DNA from: an uncultured Methanosarcinales archaeon | Lineage (GTDB): Archaea > Nanobdellota > Nanobdellia > Woesearchaeales > CAXGTL01 | DNA length: 64,000 bases | Direction of reading: 5' to 3' | Assembly: GCA_964535955.1 (NCBI GenBank) | Contig: CAZHVK010000007.1 | Location: 4,118 to 68,117 of the forward strand | Shown: piece after piece, positions 10,862-62,098 of the stretch | Position numbering within the stretch: the stretch's first letter is position 1 | Layout: the number at the start of each line of letters is the position of its first letter | Notes under the pieces: model-generated | The model's input: only the letters and a program-made list of their open reading frames with translations | Database searches by the model: none | What the model was told of the DNA's origin: nothing | Program-made: the position numbers and the translations under genes

Positions 10862-10877
10862 ATTTACATTAAAGGAG

Positions 10878-11112
10878 GTGGTCAATATCCAAATAACAAT
10901 AGATACAGCAAAAGATTCGCCAGAAGACAAACTCACTAACGTTCGTAGCCTTCAGGCTCATGCAAAGGGGTGGTCAATATCCAAATAACAATAGATACAG
11001 CAAAAGATTCGCCAGAAGACAAACTCACTAACGTTCGTAGCCTTCAGGCTCATGCAAAGGGGTGGTCAATATCCAAATAACAATAGATACAGCAAAAGAT
11101 TCGCCAGAAGAC
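10878..11112 (+). repeat. 92-bp tandem duplication (2 full copies plus 50 bp) spanning RBS, GTG start and first 17 codons of the downstream gene
   Basis: identical GTGGTCAATATCCAAATAACAATAGATACAGCAAAAGATTCGCCAGAAGAC at 10878, 10970 and 11062; first two followed by an identical 42-bp GC-richer segment containing the AGCCTTCAGGCT palindrome. Confidence 0.9.
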
Positions 11113-11361
11113 ATAAAAAAAGCAATAGAATTGCTTTCTTCTTTGACTAATTCTAGAGTTAGAAGTAATTCTGATTTATTTACTAATACTGAAACTGAAT
11201 CTTCTAGTTCTTCTTTTTCTAATACTACTTCTAGTTCCACTAACACACAAAGTAATAGTGGAGGGGTATTTAATATGTTTAATAATAATCCTAGTCAAGA
11301 AACAAAATCTCAGGAACAAGATGAACAAGAACCTTCTAAAGTTCAGGTATTAAAATATTAA
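11062..11361 (+). CDS. Ser/Thr/Asn-rich low-complexity protein
   Basis: 99-aa ORF with GTG start preceded by GGAGGT; 5' end is the third copy of the tandem repeat. Confidence 0.35.
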   Translation: MVNIQITIDTAKDSPEDIKKAIELLSSLTNSRVRSNSDLFTNTETESSSSSFSNTTSSSTNTQSNSGGVFNMFNNNPSQETKSQEQDEQEPSKVQVLKY

Positions 11362-34551: not shown

Positions 34552-36474
34552 CTAATTTTGATAAAGATAATCAAATACAGTGTCAGCTACATCAAGATAA
34601 TTCTTTACAACACTATTATCATATTCATATGACATTTCAACAAACCTTGCTAATCTAAGACTTTCTGTAAACACACGTTCAATTGATCTCTTTGTAAAAG
34701 TATTCTTAACAACAAAATCATTATCAAAATGATTTCTCAGCTTGACATAATTACCAACATATTCAATTACTTTGCCAATATCACACCCAGATTCTAACTC
34801 AAAACCTTGGTCAAGCAAAGCCCTTGCAATATCTTTATACTCTGCACCAGCAGCAGCTCCTGAATAATCACCTAAAACTTCTGAATCAAACCAATTATCA
34901 TCTTTAGTATCATTGTGCGCAACTGTTCTTTTTTCATAATGCTCTGAATTCTTTGAAATATTTTCATACAATCTTTTGTATTTTTCAAAATCCTGTTCTT
35001 GTTCTATTGTATCACACAAACCCATTTTCAATTTATTAAAACTAAAGAATTCTGCATAAGTTCTTTTATTAAAAAGCACATCATCAACATGGTTTTTCAT
35101 CTCAGTATGAAACATTGACAAAACATACATTCTATGGTTATATTTATCATCTTCAATACCCAGCTTATCAAATAATTCTTGTTTAACATGATCAAGTGTT
35201 TTTTCATTGTCTTTTGTATTTTTTGTTTTCTCATTTGCTTCATCTTTTCTATCTTGACCAATGATCTTAGTGCACACAATAAACAAATTTTCATTATCAA
35301 GACTACCACCATTATTAAAATTATAAACTTTTGTTGTATATTTTGCTAACTGATCATTTTTACTAGCTATTTGTGAGACTAATTTTTCTTTTTCATATAA
35401 TGATCTTCCCATACAAACTTTTGGAAAAAAATCTTTTGTACCTAGGATAGCACCATGACTAGCGATCAGCTCTTTCTCATGATCCTGAAAACCATCTAGG
35501 TTGTGTCCTGACAAATAAAGTATTGGAACCTTTTTATTGAATCTTTTCAATAATCCGCTTACTTCTCTTAATGTTTCAATACCAGTGCCTAATGCAGGCC
35601 CACACACCCAATTATTATCAATAAATATTGCAGCACAATTTTCAAAATCCTCTTCCTTAGGATAATAAGCAAAATCATGCACAATTACTTTTTCATTTGC
35701 ATAAGGTCTATTATCTCCTAGATTCAGAAACTCTTTATCACTTAACACTAAAAAATGATAATTCATCCTTGTCTGCATATTACCAGCACGCAGTGATTTA
35801 TCAATATAAGGTAAAAATTTTTTCCACATATCATTTTTATAACTATGCTGCCATCTTGATAATGAATAACTAGGCACCATTGTTCCTGTCAATTGATAGA
35901 ATAAGATATGCATCATCGTAGGAAAATTCTCAAAATCAGTCATCTGTGCATCTGAATATACTTTTGCAAATTCTGACCCATACAATGTTGAAAGACCTTT
36001 GATCAAAGCCATTTCACTCATATGACCATTATGATTAGATTTATAATTTATGATTTTTATTCCAGGAAAATCTTTTCTTAATTTTTCAGCAGTCAATAAT
36101 TTTTCACCAACCTTGCATATTCCTCCAAAACTTTTTCTTTTATTAATCTTAACAACAGCAAAACTTGGTTTTTGCAGACCTCTGGATTTGACACTTCTTA
36201 AGATACTTTTATATTTCTGATTTCCTTTCATAACTTCTTCATGAGAAAAGTCAACAAGCAAAAGATCTATCCCATTGTGCTTGATAAACTCCTTACATTC
36301 ATCTTCAGCATAAGCATGTAAGACATAATCAGAAGGATAATAATCATTTACCTTCCAACAAGAATCATCAACTACAATGATTGTTCCTTTTTTCTCAGTT
36401 AATATCTTTTCTATTTCTTGATCTAGTGAAACTTTCTTTTTCTTAATATCTACACCATTATCTACATTAGCCAT
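34552..36474 (-). CDS. large hypothetical protein with REC-like N-terminus
   Basis: GTIIVVDDS...IDLLLVDFSHEE receiver-like; central region with CGPALGTG and LYLSGHNLDG motifs; 640 aa. Confidence 0.4.
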   Translation of the reverse strand: MANVDNGVDIKKKKVSLDQEIEKILTEKKGTIIVVDDSCWKVNDYYPSDYVLHAYAEDECKEFIKHNGIDLLLVDFSHEEVMKGNQKYKSILRSVKSRGLQKPSFAVVKINKRKSFGGICKVGEKLLTAEKLRKDFPGIKIINYKSNHNGHMSEMALIKGLSTLYGSEFAKVYSDAQMTDFENFPTMMHILFYQLTGTMVPSYSLSRWQHSYKNDMWKKFLPYIDKSLRAGNMQTRMNYHFLVLSDKEFLNLGDNRPYANEKVIVHDFAYYPKEEDFENCAAIFIDNNWVCGPALGTGIETLREVSGLLKRFNKKVPILYLSGHNLDGFQDHEKELIASHGAILGTKDFFPKVCMGRSLYEKEKLVSQIASKNDQLAKYTTKVYNFNNGGSLDNENLFIVCTKIIGQDRKDEANEKTKNTKDNEKTLDHVKQELFDKLGIEDDKYNHRMYVLSMFHTEMKNHVDDVLFNKRTYAEFFSFNKLKMGLCDTIEQEQDFEKYKRLYENISKNSEHYEKRTVAHNDTKDDNWFDSEVLGDYSGAAAGAEYKDIARALLDQGFELESGCDIGKVIEYVGNYVKLRNHFDNDFVVKNTFTKRSIERVFTESLRLARFVEMSYEYDNSVVKNYLDVADTVFDYLYQN

Positions 36475-36641
36475 ATATCTATATATAGGTGATTTAGAGT
36501 TTATAAATCTTTCTATTATTTTACTACTTTTAAGTGACTATTCTACAAATAACCACAACAACACTTCTATTATAAAAGAACAATATTTATATATAAGTAA
36601 GGGTTGTCATTGAATATAAAACAACAAAAGGTGGTAGCTAT

Positions 36642-38111
36642 ATGAAAAAGATAAACACATTATTGGTGATAGAAATATTCTTAATAATCTTATTTGCAAC
36701 ATCTGTCTTAGCAGTAAAAGATTCAACAGGTGCCTTTGACGTTGAGATCAAACCAGTTACAGACAAGATCACAGTTTATGGAACAGCAAAATTTACAATA
36801 ACAGTTAACAATCATCTTTCAAAAGAAGATACTTACACATTAAAGTTTGGAGATTATACTAATTGGAAAATATATTATACAGAGCCTCACACAGATTATA
36901 TGTCTGGGTTTGAAGTAGGGGCAGGTAGTTCTTATACAACAAAAGCATTTTTCAGACCAGATAAAGAGATTGGCAAAGGTTATAAAGTAATTGAAATGAC
37001 TATTAAATCAGAATCAACAGGTGAAAAATTAGAATTTGCAGTTCCTGTTTATATGATTTCATTAGATGCAGCACAAAAACAATATCTTCCAAATGTAAAA
37101 GTGGATGTAGATTTCCCTGAAAAAATAGACCCAAGAGATGAACTAAATCTTAAAGTAACATTAAGAAACTTAAACATAAAAAACATAAGTAGCTTAGAGG
37201 TTTATGTTGAAAGTGATTCAATCAATGAATACCAGCTAACATCATTAGAACCTGAACAAGAAAGAGTAATCAATTTTCCAATTCAGTTAGATCCATTACA
37301 TCCTCCTGAAAAAGATATTCTAAAGGTTAAAGCAATCACAGAACCATATGAATTTACAGCCTCAAGACAAGAATTTGAGATCATTGATTATACTTCAGTA
37401 TTTGACAAACAAGAAGAATTAACAACATCTTTATTTAAGAAAACAAAAACAATTGTCTATAAAAACATTGGCAATGTAGATAAAAGCCAGACAGTTAGAG
37501 TAGTAGCACCAATATGGAAAGTTTTCCTTTTTTCAGTATCACCAAAGGATTACTCAGTTGTCAAAGAAGAAGGAATAAGATATTATTCATGGGATCTTAA
37601 ATTAAACCCAGATGAAGAACAGCAAATTATTGTTGTTACAAATTACAGGGTCATATTCTATTTCTTTCTTTTGATTATCATTGGTTTTATTTCTTACAAT
37701 ATGTTTAGAAGTCCTGTACAGATAACAAAATTAGCAAAAAATATTGAACTTCATAAAGGTGTTATTTCAGAAGTCAAAGTAATGCTTAACATAAAAAACA
37801 TTAGCAATAAGCAGCTAGGAAACATAAAAATCTTAGATAAGATACCAAACATGGCAAACATTACACAAGACTTTGACATTGGCACTGTAAAACCATCTAA
37901 GATAATGAAACATGAATCACAAGGTTACACAGTTGTAAGATGGGACTTAGATGAATTAGACCCAAATGAAGATAGGCTTATTACTTACAGAATGAAGTCA
38001 AGGCTAAGTATATTTGGCAATTTTGACTTGCCTAGAGCAAAAGTCAAGTACAAGACAAGTGCTGGTAAGAAAAGAGTTGTAAGGTCAAATAAATTGGTTA
38101 TACATGCTTAG
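36642..38111 (+). CDS. secreted protein with C-proximal TM anchor (surface protein)
   Basis: signal peptide (LLVIEIFLIILFATSVLA), beta-rich body, TM IFYFFLLIIIGFISY near residue 340. Confidence 0.45.
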   Translation: MKKINTLLVIEIFLIILFATSVLAVKDSTGAFDVEIKPVTDKITVYGTAKFTITVNNHLSKEDTYTLKFGDYTNWKIYYTEPHTDYMSGFEVGAGSSYTTKAFFRPDKEIGKGYKVIEMTIKSESTGEKLEFAVPVYMISLDAAQKQYLPNVKVDVDFPEKIDPRDELNLKVTLRNLNIKNISSLEVYVESDSINEYQLTSLEPEQERVINFPIQLDPLHPPEKDILKVKAITEPYEFTASRQEFEIIDYTSVFDKQEELTTSLFKKTKTIVYKNIGNVDKSQTVRVVAPIWKVFLFSVSPKDYSVVKEEGIRYYSWDLKLNPDEEQQIIVVTNYRVIFYFFLLIIIGFISYNMFRSPVQITKLAKNIELHKGVISEVKVMLNIKNISNKQLGNIKILDKIPNMANITQDFDIGTVKPSKIMKHESQGYTVVRWDLDELDPNEDRLITYRMKSRLSIFGNFDLPRAKVKYKTSAGKKRVVRSNKLVIHA

Positions 38112-38189
38112 GTGTGTGTTTTTATTTTTCTTATTGTTTTTTTTTTCTTTGTCTTTTGGGTTTATAACCACTCACAAGTAACAAATAAA

Positions 38190-38207
38190 CCGAAACATTT
38201 ATAAATA
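38190..38207 (+). promoter_or_regulatory. BRE/TATA promoter CCGAAACATTTATAAATA (identical to 5395 copy)
   Basis: 18-bp identity with the 5395 element, 66 nt upstream of the 38273 ATG. Confidence 0.5.
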
Positions 38208-38272
38208 AGAACAACCCCACCACTATATATTACTAAGATTACTAAATCAACCAATACTGAGGTGTATTAAAT

Positions 38273-39418
38273 ATGAATAAAGATTCAGAAAAAAGAAAAA
38301 TATCAAAACCAGCAAAAATAGCTGGAACAGTGCTTGGAATCCTATTAAGTATTGCAGGAATAAAAGCAAATGCTCAACCAATGAATTATGGTAATGACTT
38401 AGACCAAATGAGAGCAGCAGCAGATGCATACTGGGGTGGAAATTCAAGTTCATCTAGAGGATATGGTTATTCAGGTTCAAGAGGAAGAACAGACCAAGAA
38501 GTAAACAGCATGGGTGTTAAATGGGAACATGGCAGTGCTAATTATATACAAACAAATGACAGAAGAGGAATGGTTGGTAGAGAAAAAACAACTTATGGAG
38601 TATCTGGAACAAGAAAAGGAAAACCATGGAGTACCTCTATTACATTCAAAGGAGATCTTAACAAATTATTAGGATTACAAATCATGGATGAATACACATT
38701 AGACCATTTAGATATGGAATTCTGGGAAAAAACATACAGAACAAATTCAAGAGGTGGTTTATTTTGGGATAGAAGATCTTCAGGCGGATGGGAACATCAT
38801 TCACCAAAAGAAAAAGGAAGATTTTATGTTGAAGATCCATTAAGAGCAAGCATTGAATTACAAGAACAAGCAGACAGGATCTATAGACTTGATGATGGTT
38901 CTTTATTAGGAGTTAAATATGCACCTTATGGAACAAAAAAAGCAAGACAAAAAGAACAAGATTTTAATAAAAAAACAGCTAATACAGATCCAAATCAAAA
39001 ATCAAGATTTAGTGATCCAAATAGAAGAGAAAGACTTAGAATAATTCCAGCTGGTGAAGAAGATCATGTTAAATATGATATTGAACACATTCTTATAGAC
39101 GAGACTGCATTAGCAAATGGTAAAGATCTTATGTATTTTGGTGAAGAAGTTGAAGCAGAGCCAGGAACATTTTATTATACTTTTAACCCATCAGCATTAA
39201 TGCAAAGAGCAAGAGCAAAGAGAAAAGAATACAATTCACAGTTTGTTGTAAGTGATATTTTAGAAGAAATAAAAAACAGAAACCCAGAAACAGACTTAGA
39301 TGAAGCAGAAACAGCAGACTTTATAATCAGATACCATGGAATGTTTGAGCCTGGTGTTGGATACAAGATTGCTCTAAACGAACAAAAAGCACAAGAATTA
39401 ATAGCAGAAGAAGAATAA
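38273..39418 (+). CDS. secreted hypothetical protein
   Basis: signal peptide (AGTVLGILLSIAGIKANA); Gly/Ser/Arg-rich region; 381 aa. Confidence 0.45.
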   Translation: MNKDSEKRKISKPAKIAGTVLGILLSIAGIKANAQPMNYGNDLDQMRAAADAYWGGNSSSSRGYGYSGSRGRTDQEVNSMGVKWEHGSANYIQTNDRRGMVGREKTTYGVSGTRKGKPWSTSITFKGDLNKLLGLQIMDEYTLDHLDMEFWEKTYRTNSRGGLFWDRRSSGGWEHHSPKEKGRFYVEDPLRASIELQEQADRIYRLDDGSLLGVKYAPYGTKKARQKEQDFNKKTANTDPNQKSRFSDPNRRERLRIIPAGEEDHVKYDIEHILIDETALANGKDLMYFGEEVEAEPGTFYYTFNPSALMQRARAKRKEYNSQFVVSDILEEIKNRNPETDLDEAETADFIIRYHGMFEPGVGYKIALNEQKAQELIAEEE

Positions 39419-39585
39419 GAGTAATTCTTTTTTTATTATTTTTTATTATTTATGATTTTTTTATCTTTAATTATTAATTTTATATTCTATGTTTTTCATA
39501 TTCCACATTTTTCCTAATTTTACTTGATTTCCACCTCTCTAAAACAGATAAGTTTAAAAACAATTTCTTATTTATTATTCTATAT

Positions 39586-39735
39586 CCCTACCTAGCTCAA
39601 TTGGTCAGAGCGCACGGCTGTTTTCCTTATACAGGAAGGCTAAAGATGTGTTCGCTATTTGACTGGGTGCATACCTTGGATGAAAAATAGTCAGCCGGTA
39701 CCGTGAGGTTCCTGGTTCGAGTCCGGGGGTGGGGA
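39586..39735 (+). tRNA. intron-containing tRNA, probably tRNA-Asn(GUU), ~76-nt intron in the anticodon loop
   Basis: acceptor CCCTACC/GGTGGGG, D-arm GCTC..GAGC, anticodon stem CACGG/CCGTG interrupted 39624-39699, T-arm CCTGG TTCGAGT CCGGG. Confidence 0.5.
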
Positions 39736-39737
39736 TT

Positions 39738-39821: not shown

Positions 39822-40582
39822 ATGAGAATAAAAAAACTTAAACAAGGTTACAAAAAGTTAACAAAAGAAAAAGTTAGAATAATAGCTCATTTAATTGGTG
39901 ATGGATATATAGGTATAAGTAAACATGATTATAATATTAAATATGAAGTTTCTGATGAAGAATCATTAAACTCCTTTAAAAGTGATTTAGTTGAAGTATA
40001 TGGTCTTAAACCTACAATTGGAACAAATCCCTCTGGCAAAACAGGCAAACCAATTCCTTTTATTAGATTAAGGTCAAAATTAGCTTATGAGGATTTGTCA
40101 AGAACCACCGGTCAATAGACCGGTGGCATGAAGCGAAAGCTTCATAACAGCCTATAATGACCAGTGGTTCTTGATCATGCTCAGTATTCCACCAGTCAAT
40201 AGACTGGTGGTATACTGACATATTAAAATATGCAACATATTATTCTAAAGATTGGAAGATTCATAAATCATTGCTCTTAGCTTCTGCTGATATTAAAATA
40301 GAATTTCTTAAAGCATTATTTGATGATGAAGGAAGTGTTATTCCTACTGGTAAGAATGGCATTATTAGATTATATTCTATAAATTTAGAAGGACTAAAAC
40401 AAATCCAAACCATTTTAATAGACTTTAAAATAGAATCTAAAATTGTGAAGGGCTTTGGTTGCAGAAGAAATGTTTATGCTTTAGTAATTAAAAACCTAAA
40501 ATTATTTAGAGAGAGGATAGGTTTCAATTTAAAAAGAAAACAAAAAAAATTGAATGATCTAATTATAAATCAATTAAAATGA
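39822..40582 (+). pseudogene. LAGLIDADG homing endonuclease split in two by a ~110-bp palindromic insert
   Basis: first half carries LIGDGYIG (LAGLIDADG motif 1), second half FLKALFDDEGSV (motif 2); halves in frames 0 and 2, insert length congruent 2 mod 3; stop codon lies inside the insert. Confidence 0.65.
40098..40213. repeat. hairpin-rich MITE-like insert: CCACCGGTC-AATA-GACCGGTGG, GNRA hairpin ATGAAGC-GAAA-GCTTCAT, inverted copy of left arm, CCACCAGTC-AATA-GACTGGTGG
   Basis: three perfect hairpins, long inverted repeat TCAAGAACCACCGGTC / GACCAGTGGTTCTTGA. Confidence 0.7.
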
Positions 40583-40608: not shown

Positions 40609-41232
40609 TTATTCTTTTAACAAACCATGCTCTTTACCATCAATAACAACAGAATAAAACTTAAACACTTCATCATCAAACTCTCCTTTTAATGTGATTG
40701 CATTTTTATTACCATCCCATCTTCTTTTTTGTAATAATTCAGCAACATATTTTTCTTTATCAACATCAAGAGGACGCGCAGCTCTTATTCTAAAAAGAGA
40801 ACCATCAATGCAGTATGATCTTGCTTTTAAAACATCTTCATCACAGCCTCTAAAAGTGATTTCAAATACACCATCAAATCTGCGAATTTCTTTTTCACGA
40901 TAATTGTCACTAATACCATGGTATGAAAGTTTTTTAATTTTACTAAAATCAATCATATAAGGAACAACACTTATTTCAGCAAACTCTCCATCATGTTCAT
41001 CTACAACTTGTTCTAATCTGCCTTGTTCAACAGCTTGTGCAATATTAATACTAGCTTTAATTTCAGGCATTTCAATAGGATCTCTCATAGCTAAACATGT
41101 CATATAAGTTAACCAAGAAAAAGTCAATAATGTAAGACCCATAAACTTATACCTATCCATAACAGTCATATGCTTTAACATAATACATAAAGAGAACCAC
41201 AACCAGTATAAAAATCTTTCTATTTTCACCAC
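40609..41232 (-). CDS. membrane protein (2 N-terminal TM) with soluble C-terminal domain
   Basis: 207-aa ORF; hydrophobic N-terminal 60 aa. Confidence 0.4.
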   Translation of the reverse strand: MVKIERFLYWLWFSLCIMLKHMTVMDRYKFMGLTLLTFSWLTYMTCLAMRDPIEMPEIKASINIAQAVEQGRLEQVVDEHDGEFAEISVVPYMIDFSKIKKLSYHGISDNYREKEIRRFDGVFEITFRGCDEDVLKARSYCIDGSLFRIRAARPLDVDKEKYVAELLQKRRWDGNKNAITLKGEFDDEVFKFYSVVIDGKEHGLLKE

Positions 41233-41408
41233 TAAAGAAAGATAACAAAATAAAAATAAACATTTTCTACTGAAAAAACCAAAACCTTTATAAATAGAAA
41301 AAGTTGCTACCTATACAATGGTAAAGGTGCTTTCTGAAGGAAAAAACAACTATTTATAGAGTCTTTTCTCTCATGAAACACCTTAAGGCAACAATAGACC
41401 GCATAATG

Positions 41409-41554
41409 CCTTGGTGGTGTAGTTGGTCTATCATGGGGCCCTGTCGAAGCTTTATAAAGCAAAAACAGTTTTAAATAGACTGTTTTAGCTCATTGCGGAT
41501 AGGCCCCGACTCGGGTTCAAATTCATTTTATGATGAAAGTCCCGGCCAGGGCGT
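41409..41554 (+). tRNA. tRNA-Asp(GUC) with two introns (54 nt in anticodon loop, ~18 nt in T-loop region)
   Basis: acceptor GCCTTGG/CCAGGGC, D-arm GTG-TAGTTGGTCTAT-CAT (Glu/Asp-type), anticodon stem GGGCC/GGCCC with loop CTGTCG-A, BHB-compatible pairing CTGT/GCGG; T-arm TCGGG TTCAAAT [insert] CCCGG. Confidence 0.6.
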
Positions 41555-41646
41555 TAAATAACAAAAAATCAAGGCTGATAAGACATTTCAGCCTAATAAT
41601 AGGGCAGTGGTGGCTAAGATTTCATAAACCTCACTAGCCCTACAAT

Positions 41647-41757
41647 GGGCTGGTGGCTCAGTCTGGATTTATACAGATATGAAGGACAATAGAGCACTCC
41701 ACTTTTAATGGAGTGGTCGCGGGTTCGAAAACAACATCGAAAATCCCGTCCGGCCCA
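41647..41757 (+). tRNA. tRNA-Lys(UUU) with two non-canonical introns (24 nt in D-loop, ~14 nt in T-loop region)
   Basis: acceptor GGGCTGG/CCGGCCC, D-stem GCTC/GAGC separated by 32 nt, anticodon arm CTCCA CTTTTAA TGGAG, T-arm GCGGG TTCGAAA [ACAACATCGAAAAT] CCCGT. Confidence 0.6.
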
Positions 41758-41787
41758 CTTATATTTAATAAAAGGTAAAAATTCAAT

Positions 41788-42039
41788 ATGGCAAAACGAA
41801 AAAAGAAAATAAAAATAGTCATTAAAAAACATTTCTTAATGCCAGAACATTCAAAGTTAAATGATAAAGACAAAAAGAAACTTCTTGAAAAATACAATAT
41901 AACTCTTCAAAACTTACCAAAAATACTGAACACAGATGCTGCTTTACAAACATTAAAAGTAAAACCAGGAGATGTTATCAAGATAATAAGAAAGAGTTCT
42001 ACTGCTGGAACTTCAATTTTTTACAGGTGCGTAATATAA
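41788..42039 (+). CDS. rpoH: DNA-directed RNA polymerase subunit H (Rpb5-like)
   Basis: LMPEHSKL...KPGDVIKIIRKSSTAGTSIFYRCV RpoH signature; first gene of rpo operon. Confidence 0.85.
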   Translation: MAKRKKKIKIVIKKHFLMPEHSKLNDKDKKKLLEKYNITLQNLPKILNTDAALQTLKVKPGDVIKIIRKSSTAGTSIFYRCVI

Positions 42040-61619: not shown

Positions 61620-61715
61620 GGGCCTGTAGCTGAGTCTGGCCAACTTTATCAAGTTGGATCAGGATGGCGCGACATTGCGTTCGCTCTTCTCACTTCAGTC
61701 CCGCAATAAAACATC
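61620..61715 (+). other. tRNA-like 5' segment (duplicate of the tRNA-Ile 5' end) with embedded 7-bp hairpin; pseudo- or split-tRNA candidate
   Basis: first 12 nt GGGCCTGTAGCT identical to the downstream tRNA; no matching 3' acceptor strand before the next gene; hairpin CCAACTT-TATC-AAGTTGG. Confidence 0.35.
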
Positions 61716-61849
61716 GGGCCTGTAGCTTAGTCTGGTGGAGCGCCGGTCTTATATGGCAGTGTTCCCAACAACTGGCTTAAGTTAGCCGGTGGTCGTGCGA
61801 GGATAACATTATCAGTGTTGTTCCACGAATTCAAATCGCGCCAGGCCCA
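61716..61849 (+). tRNA. tRNA-Ile(UAU) candidate with two 30-nt introns (anticodon loop 37/38 and T-arm)
   Basis: acceptor GGGCCTG/CAGGCCC, D-arm GCTT..GAGC, anticodon stem CCGGT/GCCGG, loop CTTATA|intron|A with BHB pairing CTTA/TAAG; T-stem GTGCG [30-nt insert] TTCAAAT CGCGC. Confidence 0.5.
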
Positions 61850-61953
61850 TTTTTTTTAAGAAACATCAAAAATACAGAGTATTTTTGTGGCTTTGAAATT
61901 CCATAAGAATTTCAAAAGGTTTTTAAACAAATATCAAATAATTTAAATATACT

Positions 61954-62028
61954 GCCCCGTTGGTGTAGTCCGGCCAATCATCTTGCCCTTTCGAGGCAAG
62001 GACTCGGGTTCAAATCCCGGACGGGGCA
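61954..62028 (+). tRNA. tRNA-Glu(UUC), intronless
   Basis: GCCCCGT TG GTG-TAGTCCGGCCAAT-CAT C TTGCC CTTTCGA GGCAA GGAC TCGGG TTCAAAT CCCGG ACGGGGC A. Confidence 0.8.
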
Positions 62029-62098
62029 TTTATTATTCTCAATCATAGATAACTTTTTAAGTGCAATACGAATTCTCAGTTTATTAAAACAAAAATAG

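Follow-up and report, generated by a model that had tools for sequence, protein, structure and literature searches.

The 64-kb window analysed here (the whole stretch of 64,000 nucleotides (nt) of archaeal DNA) contains neighbouring transfer RNA (tRNA) genes for Asp and Lys, the sequences of which are interrupted by inserts. Our analysis suggested that both are, very probably, functional tRNA genes and that each carries two archaeal introns of the bulge-helix-bulge (BHB) type, which would be removed by protein-catalysed splicing. This reading of two introns per gene was supported by BHB motifs in the exact register, by the restoration of the cloverleaf and by about 65 orthologous loci. The original prediction, made from the letters alone, had proposed two inserts in each tRNA (one in the D-loop or the anticodon loop and one of 14-18 nt in the T-loop) and mature molecules of 73-75 nt. 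The BHB geometry, the ARAGORN results on spliced sequences and the orthologous loci bore out the inserts, and both spliced products measured 74 nt. The pair had been placed at 41409-41757; the end of tRNA-Lys was indeed found at 41757, but tRNA-Asp started at 41408, one position earlier.

The tRNA-Asp(GTC) gene occupied positions 41408..41553 of the plus strand and measured 146 nt unspliced and 74 nt spliced. Its exon layout was GCCTTGG TG GTGT AGTTGGTCTA TCAT G GGGCC CTGTCG [54 nt] A GGCCC CGAC TCGGG TTCAAA [18 nt] T CCCGG CCAGGGC G. The first predicted intron (41447..41500, plus strand, 54 nt) lay at the canonical 37/38 site and formed a strict-type BHB, in which the anticodon stem served as the outer helix h, the central helix H paired CTGT with GCGG (4/4), and the bulges were CG|A and AT|A. 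The second, TTCATTTTATGATGAAAG (41522..41539, plus strand, 18 nt), separated A59 and U60 of the T-loop and formed a strict hBHBh' motif with the 5-bp T-stem as h, TTCA/TGAA as H, bulges AA|T and AG|T, and an h' of 4 bp. When 41447-41500 and 41522-41539 were both removed, ARAGORN returned a perfect 74-nt tRNA-Asp(gtc) cloverleaf, the D-loop of which carried GG and the T-loop of which read TTCAAAT. With the T-loop insert alone removed, ARAGORN read a tRNA with a canonical 54-nt intron; with the 37/38 insert alone removed, it found none.

The tRNA-Lys(UUU) gene (41647..41757, plus strand) measured 111 nt unspliced and 74 nt spliced, with the exon layout GGGCTGG TG GCTC AGTCTGG [23 nt] TA GAGC A CTCCA CTTTTAA TGGAG TGGTC GCGGG TTCGAA [14 nt] T CCCGT CCGGCCC A. 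Its first predicted intron (41667..41689, plus strand, 23 nt) was located in the D-loop between G19 and U20 and formed a strict-type BHB with H = GTCT/GGAC (4/4), bulges GG|A and AA|T, and an h' of 6 bp. The second, AACAACATCGAAAA (41730..41743, plus strand, 14 nt), lay between A59 and U60 of the T-loop and formed a relaxed hBH(loop) motif, in which h was the T-stem, H was TTCG/CGAA (4/4), the 3' bulge was AA|T, and the 5' bulge was fused with the loop. The removal of 41667-41689 together with 41730-41743 gave a perfect 74-nt tRNA-Lys(ttt) cloverleaf with GG in the D-loop and TTCGAAT as the T-loop, according to ARAGORN. No tRNA was found by this program when either insert was removed alone.

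On the raw DNA of 41300-41850, neither gene was called by ARAGORN or by the Rfam tRNA model, permissive thresholds included. ARAGORN run on the raw window with intron options and lowered thresholds also recovered neither gene and gave noise only at -ps80, and the Rfam scan of 41300-41850 yielded chance matches only (E > 1). A simpler single-intron solution, which the original prediction had named as an outcome that would speak against it, was found for neither gene when ARAGORN was applied to singly spliced constructs. The rejection of the cloverleafs by covariance models had been named as well; the unspliced genes of the window went undetected by the Rfam tRNA model, and intron-free orthologues scored 54-56 bits (Asp) and 71-73 bits (Lys) with it. 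A split or permuted tRNA gene was ruled out, as the exons of each gene follow one another directly and in colinear order, within 146 nt for Asp and 111 nt for Lys.

To score the BHB motifs, the predicted junction of each of the four inserts was compared with eight shifted registers. The geometry comprised helix H, in which exon bases -6 to -3 pair with intron bases -6 to -3, together with two 3-nt bulges and the outer helices h and h'. For all four inserts, helix H reached 4/4 only in the register that restored the canonical tRNA and did not exceed 3/4 at the eight neighbours. With 4/4 helices expected at about 2% each and a single register required, chance is excluded. Three of the four inserts were of the strict type, and the T-loop insert of tRNA-Lys was of the relaxed hBH type. 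The precursor folds were more stable than those of shuffled sequences (z = -4.5 and -4.8), and the T-loop hBH structure of tRNA-Lys appeared exactly in the unconstrained minimum free energy (MFE) fold. Several points weigh against the reading of two spliced introns per gene. The T-loop BHB of pre-tRNA-Asp and the D-loop BHB of pre-tRNA-Lys were absent from the unconstrained MFE folds, in which local hairpins competed with them, and the outer helix of the Lys D-loop motif, the D-stem, was reached only after an A14/A21 mismatch. It is also possible that intron-free Asp or Lys paralogues lie outside the 64-kb window; within it, ARAGORN and the Rfam tRNA model detected no second gene for either. 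When the cloverleaf stems and both BHBs were imposed as constraints, the structures were less stable than the MFE fold by 6.7 kcal/mol (Asp) and 4.7 kcal/mol (Lys).

We then compared the two genes with their orthologues. An RpoB'' query yielded the best 80 related loci with tRNA-Asp and tRNA-Lys ahead of rpoH-rpoB, in which the mature sequences were aligned with the 1 kb upstream of rpoB while long target gaps were allowed. Each gap was refined to its best BHB register, and each spliced product was tested again with ARAGORN, which recognised 138 of the 140 products as a tRNA cloverleaf. The RpoB'' of the window was 87% identical to that of a Candidatus Woesearchaeota metagenome-assembled genome (MAG), and nearly all of the 80 loci either bore the labels Woesearchaeota, Nanoarchaeota or Nanoarchaeia or were mislabelled MAGs. 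The identity and the labels indicate that the host is a DPANN archaeon of the Woesearchaeota group.

The orthologues of tRNA-Asp occupied the equivalent syntenic position in the related genomes. Intron counts were taken over the clean genes (63 Asp and 68 Lys) from about 65 related Woesearchaeota/Nanoarchaeota genomes. Among the Asp genes, 3, 30, 25, 4 and 1 carried zero, one, two, three and four introns, respectively, and the sites used were 59/60 (52/63), 37/38 (32/63) and the D-loop (7/63). The corresponding numbers for Lys were 5, 29, 17, 16 and 1, with introns in the D-loop (33/68), at 37/38 (38/68), at 59/60 (30/68) and in the anticodon stem at about 30-32 (9/68). The means were thus about 1.5 introns per gene for Asp and 1.7 for Lys. 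Multi-intron tRNAs had been described as rare at the outset, and this holds for archaea overall, but at 1.5-1.7 introns per gene they are the norm in the host lineage. The intron interiors (13-212 nt) were hypervariable and showed no sequence conservation. The last six bases, however, were conserved: the Asp 59/60 introns ended in YGRA-AG|T. Helix H covaried with the exon both in the T-loop (TTCA/TGAA, TTCG/CGAA and TCCG/CGGA) and in the Lys D-loop (GCCT/GGGC, GTCT/GGAC and CCTG/CAGG). In the spliced orthologues, 96.3% (Asp) and 98.3% (Lys) of the cloverleaf pairs were kept, and compensatory double changes occurred at 5 of 21 and 7 of 21 pairs, respectively, including the T-stem pairs that bracket the intron. 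The closest relatives, loci L001 and L002, had a tRNA-Lys with three introns (D-loop, 37/38 and 59/60); the tRNA-Lys of the window lacked the 37/38 intron, and this difference therefore points to rapid turnover between close relatives. The Asp 59/60 intron is apparently ancient in the order. Judged by these comparisons, D-loop and T-loop BHB introns are the rule in the host order and ordinary for the lineage.

The rejection of the unspliced sequences by standard detectors is what would also be seen if both were pseudogenes, that is, tRNA genes inactivated by random insertions, and the presence of a partial, degenerate copy of the 5' end of Lys just upstream shows that rearrangement happens at this locus. 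Random insertions, however, are not expected to bear a BHB in the exact register in four of four cases. The exons were intact and gave perfect cloverleafs when spliced, the insert positions were kept with compensatory changes across dozens of genomes, and the window yielded no further gene for Asp or Lys. We therefore consider inactivation very unlikely. Another explanation, that the inserts are retained as D-loop and T-loop expansions of unusual mature tRNAs, is extremely unlikely: an insert of 18 or 14 nt at 59/60 would break the interaction between T-loop and D-loop, the inserts were free to vary in length (13-212 nt) and sequence with only the splice-motif bases conserved, and some orthologues without inserts were canonical tRNAs.

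The T-loop insert of tRNA-Asp contains the hexamer TGATGA (41531-41536), which had been described as C-box-like. Euryarchaeal tRNA-Trp introns carry C/D box guides, and the hexamer matches the C-box core; in addition, L002 carries CTGATGAAAG at the equivalent site. A C/D box (K-turn) guide RNA element encoded or contained in this insert has nevertheless a negligible likelihood. The hexamer is located on the 3' arm of the T-loop BHB, and its two halves were explained by pairing, TGA with the intron TCA (h') and TGAA with the T-loop TTCA (H). The sequence in and beside the 18-nt intron contained no CUGA D box, and 18 nt is too short to hold the C, D and guide elements together. No Rfam C/D match above noise was obtained at 41300-41850, and among the 52 orthologous Asp T-loop introns, TGATGA recurred only in L002, the closest relative with this gene, and was absent from the other 50. 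An intron-borne C/D box small RNA was thus rejected: the hexamer stands as described, but its reading as a C box does not.

Splicing of the two introns per gene would proceed as follows. Each insert would fold with its flanking exon bases into a BHB in the precursor RNA, with a 4-bp helix and two 3-nt bulges. In the manner established for tRNA splicing in archaea, EndA, the endonuclease, would cleave each bulge behind its second base, and a ligase of the RtcB type would join the exons; the excised introns would probably be circular. The ends of the pre-tRNAs would be trimmed by RNase P and RNase Z, and the products would be 74-nt tRNAs. The relaxed T-loop motif of tRNA-Lys would require an EndA of broad substrate range, and such a broad-specificity enzyme is therefore implied for this host.

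In total, seven tRNA genes with eleven inserts were found in the window. The tRNA-Gly(GCC) gene (c60595-60337, minus strand, 259 nt) appeared to have three introns on this strand, located in the D-loop (60575-60489, 87 nt; H = ATGG/CCAT, h' of 10 bp), at 53/54 (60456-60435, 22 nt) and at 59/60 (60428-60351, 78 nt). Its 72-nt spliced product was a clean tRNA-Gly for ARAGORN, and the unspliced gene was missed by both ARAGORN and Rfam. The tRNA-Val(TAC) gene (c60720-60629, minus strand) contained a 17-nt insert. The tRNA-Ile(UAU) gene (61716-61849) had two 30-nt introns, one at 37/38 (61754-61783; H = CTTA/TAAG) and one at 53/54 (61800-61829; H = CGTG/CACG, with an h' of 8 bp capped by a TTATCAG loop). 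The ARAGORN intron search mislabelled this gene as Pro(tgg); an Ile tRNA with UAU fits an AT-rich DPANN genome. The tRNA-Glu gene (61953-62029) had no inserts. The order Gly (minus), Val (minus), lgt, Ile(UAU) and Glu was conserved in L088, L090 and L092, where the intron sets differed gene by gene. By manual reading, the Glu genes of these loci carried 37/38 and 59/60 introns, whereas the window gene had none, and Val apparently had several introns in L088 compared with one in the window. These differences at the lgt-flanking loci indicate that introns have apparently been gained and lost very fast.

Upstream of tRNA-Lys, a partial copy of its 5' end had been noted in the original prediction, and our results confirmed this resemblance. 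The copy GGGCAGTGGTGGCTAAG (41602..41618, plus strand) aligned with GGGC--TGGTGGCTCAG at a local alignment score of 19; as a 15/17-nt copy of tRNA-Lys nt 1-15, it reached a score that was attained by none of 2000 shuffles of the spacer. It proved to be part of a larger recurrent element. In the MFE fold, the copy (41602-41618) paired with the complementary motif CCTCACTAGCCCTACAAT (41629..41646, plus strand), its partner being CCTCACTAGCCC (41629-41640), just 5' of tRNA-Lys. The motif CCTCACTAGCCCTACAAT, which is common to the 3' part of the element family, was similar to CTCACTTAGTCCCACA in the D-loop intron of tRNA-Gly (shuffle p ~0.05); its similarity to CTCACTTCAGTCCCGCAAT upstream of tRNA-Ile was weaker (shuffle p ~0.23).

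A similar arrangement was found ahead of tRNA-Ile(UAU) at 61620-61715, where a 19/20 copy of Ile nt 1-20 (61620-61639) was followed by 76 nt and then by the complete gene. Upstream of tRNA-Lys in L002 (3456-3599), a 108-nt structured insert was bordered on both sides by an exact repeat of 25 nt, composed of 13 nt of flanking sequence and Lys nt 1-12, and the 201-nt Asp-Lys spacer containing this insert had a fold z of -4.5. The intervening sequences were homologous to each other and to the tRNA-Gly D-loop intron of the window (nhmmer E = 1e-17 to 1e-20). They had a hairpin in common, the loop of which (TTATCA) was constant and the stems of which covaried (CGATCC/GGATCG and CCAACT/AGTTGG), and the core of the element was GGGAYRGYGCGRC...GYCCCRCA. 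A pattern scan located the element in the marine metagenome contig L086 (identical to L090), where it is a genuine intron in the D-loop of the orthologous tRNA-Ile(UAU), with the core again within the 59/60 intron of this gene and with the synteny lgt, tRNA-Ile and tRNA-Glu. In L088 and L092, the element was present in tRNA-Gly, and tRNA-Ile had neither intron nor copy. In the remaining 78 rpoB-flank loci, the element was not detected with an nhmmer profile, and a metagenome and viral scan for the core gave one true locus (L086) and six chance matches in unrelated sequence, most of it of high GC content. Taken together, these sequences appear to form one intron family that occurs in different tRNA genes of the sub-clade, either as an intron or as a 5'-exon copy plus element before an intact gene.

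Several explanations were considered for the copies. Direct repeats of a partial tRNA gene flanking inserted DNA, as at att-type sites, were found at Lys, at Ile(UAU) and in L002. No mobile element encoding an integrase or a recombinase was found: the inserts were 28-108 nt long, non-coding and homologous to tRNA introns, and none of the neighbouring open reading frames (ORFs) screened against Pfam contained an integrase or recombinase domain. The upstream copy as a real first exon was rejected, as the would-be introns at L002 and Ile, the two cases considered, end in an exon copy, so that no BHB is possible there. An H/ACA-guide reading, suggested by the ACA after the element stem, was dropped; the short versions in L086 consisted of a 19-nt hairpin only. 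The copy plus element may be what is left of an intron-bearing allele in which an intron-less copy, starting at an RNA 5' end, took the place of the 3' part, or it may represent the insertion of a small element with a target duplication of 15-25 nt. The element may alternatively be a co-transcribed small RNA, which could be released through pre-tRNA processing. That the copies and the element are the footprint of a mobile BHB-intron family, which duplicates the 5' exon upon movement or loss, is a tentative and rather unlikely idea. Two of the duplications started at tRNA position +1 and the third at -13, and this gives a hint of a mechanism defined by an RNA end or involving a long target duplication. 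If the mobile BHB-intron footprint were true, it would provide a concrete mechanistic clue to the gain and loss of archaeal tRNA introns. The 5'-exon copy plus element is the only part of the finding with real novelty potential.

The introns of the window belong to a known class, archaeal BHB introns that occupy non-canonical sites, and their mechanism is known in kind. Previous studies have listed 20/21, 53/54 and 59/60 among the non-canonical archaeal intron sites (PMC4090602). In ARMAN-2, pre-tRNA-Cys has a 13-nt hBH intron at 59/60 that was cleaved in vitro by its own EndA, and tRNA-Pro has introns at 53/54 and 59/60 (PMC3239211). The ARMAN-2 introns resemble those of the window in their DPANN host, their T-loop site 59/60 and their length (13 nt versus 14-18 nt here), and they include both the relaxed hBH type seen in Lys and the strict hBHBh' type seen in Asp; the pair of introns at 53/54 and 59/60 is also found in the tRNA-Gly of the window. 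ARMAN-2 differs in belonging to another phylum-level lineage than Woesearchaeota/Nanoarchaeota and in its epsilon2 EndA, and its splicing was observed in vitro, whereas that of the present introns is predicted. DPANN lineages, including one Woesearchaeota genome, have been reported to possess an alpha4 EndA with an L3 insert and markedly more tRNA gene disruption, and the tRNA sets of such genomes were incompletely predicted (PMC5829648).

Thermoproteales carry up to three introns per tRNA gene with a mean of 0.84, and P. calidifontis has 71 introns in 46 genes (PMC8450103). Their multi-intron genes were described by Sugahara et al. 2007/2008 (reviewed in PMC4090602 and PMC8450103), and tRNA intron transposition in this group was described by Fujishima et al. 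2010 (cited in PMC4090602). As in the window, several BHB introns per gene occur at recurring non-canonical sites (20/21, 53/54, 59/60 and others), and the density of 71 introns in 46 genes of P. calidifontis compares with 11 introns in 7 genes here. One intron sequence family across different tRNA genes is likewise common to the transposition in Thermoproteales and to the window. These organisms, in contrast, are hyperthermophilic Crenarchaeota with an (alpha-beta)2 EndA, and the present host is a DPANN archaeon with a small genome and 30% GC. In Caldiarchaeum, a tRNA-Thr 5' fragment lies upstream of the intron-gaining gene, with a 1.8-kb recombinase element between them (Sugahara et al. 2012, PMC3293823). 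A tRNA 5' fragment ahead of an intact intron-bearing gene is thus common to both systems, but the spacer encodes a recombinase in Caldiarchaeum and is a non-coding intron homologue of 28-108 nt here. The intron density of the host lineage is less appreciated than the intron type itself.

The pair of tRNA genes is followed by rpoH, encoding RNA polymerase subunit H/Rpb5 (41788..42039, plus strand, from the ORF list; Pfam RNA_pol_Rpb5_C, E = 3e-28), which starts 30 nt 3' of tRNA-Lys, heads the cluster rpoH-rpoB''-rpoB'-rpoA'-rpoA'' and was used as the synteny anchor for gathering the orthologous loci. The split rpoB''/rpoB'/rpoA'/rpoA'' genes downstream of the tRNA pair represent an archaeal arrangement. 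The G+C content of the window was 30.1%. About 50 nt 5' of tRNA-Asp, the TATA-like box ATTTATAGAG (41352..41361, plus strand) is a candidate for a promoter of the tRNA transcript, which is possible; TTTATAGAG of this box was kept in the aligned upstream region of L002. No oligo-T followed tRNA-Asp, and Asp and Lys are possibly co-transcribed as one precursor. Between the two genes, a spacer hairpin AGGCTGA-TAAGACAT-TTCAGCCT (41572..41594, plus strand) was read directly from the letters; it sits in the part that the processing of a co-transcript would discard, and in the MFE fold of the spacer, D-loop bases of tRNA-Lys are instead the partners of its 5' arm.

Further upstream, a His-like tRNA (39585-39736) with one 76-nt insert was called tRNA-His(gtg) by ARAGORN. 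In this call, the insert was placed inside the anticodon, position 37 was U, and the acceptor stem was an odd 8-bp stem starting with T/C; no clean BHB was obtained for the 76-nt insert at any junction tried. The hairpin AGCCAGG-CTAAGT-CCTGGCT was observed 3' of this gene. Two short ORFs (39822-40118 and 40271-40582) just 3' of it, outside any definable intron, resemble the two parts of a single LAGLIDADG homing endonuclease cut in half; the second matched Pfam LAGLIDADG_3 (E = 1e-9), and the two were separated by a G+C-rich hairpin, CCACCGGTC-AATA-GACCGGTGG, at 40102-40131. The pair may be a broken free-standing homing endonuclease gene. The large ORFs upstream of the tRNA cluster at 34552-39418 and 40609-41232 encode 639, 489, 381 and 206 amino acids and had no Pfam family above threshold, with one weak DUF11 match. 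These two stretches form a lineage-specific gene region between conserved genes and the tRNA/rpo cluster. A tandem repeat at 10871-11113 (92-nt unit, 2.6 copies, 99% identity) was located for the most part between short ORFs, in a gap that appears to be non-coding, and its 3' end was overlapped by the ORFs 11028-11246 (minus strand) and 11062-11361 (plus strand).

In summary, the genes described here provide further well-supported cases of BHB introns in the D-loop and T-loop from Woesearchaeota. Neither ARAGORN nor the Rfam tRNA model could see the Asp and Lys genes, and the tRNA complements of DPANN archaea are therefore probably under-called, which affects inferences on completeness and codon usage. 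With its fast intron turnover and its 5'-exon copies, this clade would be suited to the study of how archaeal tRNA introns move.

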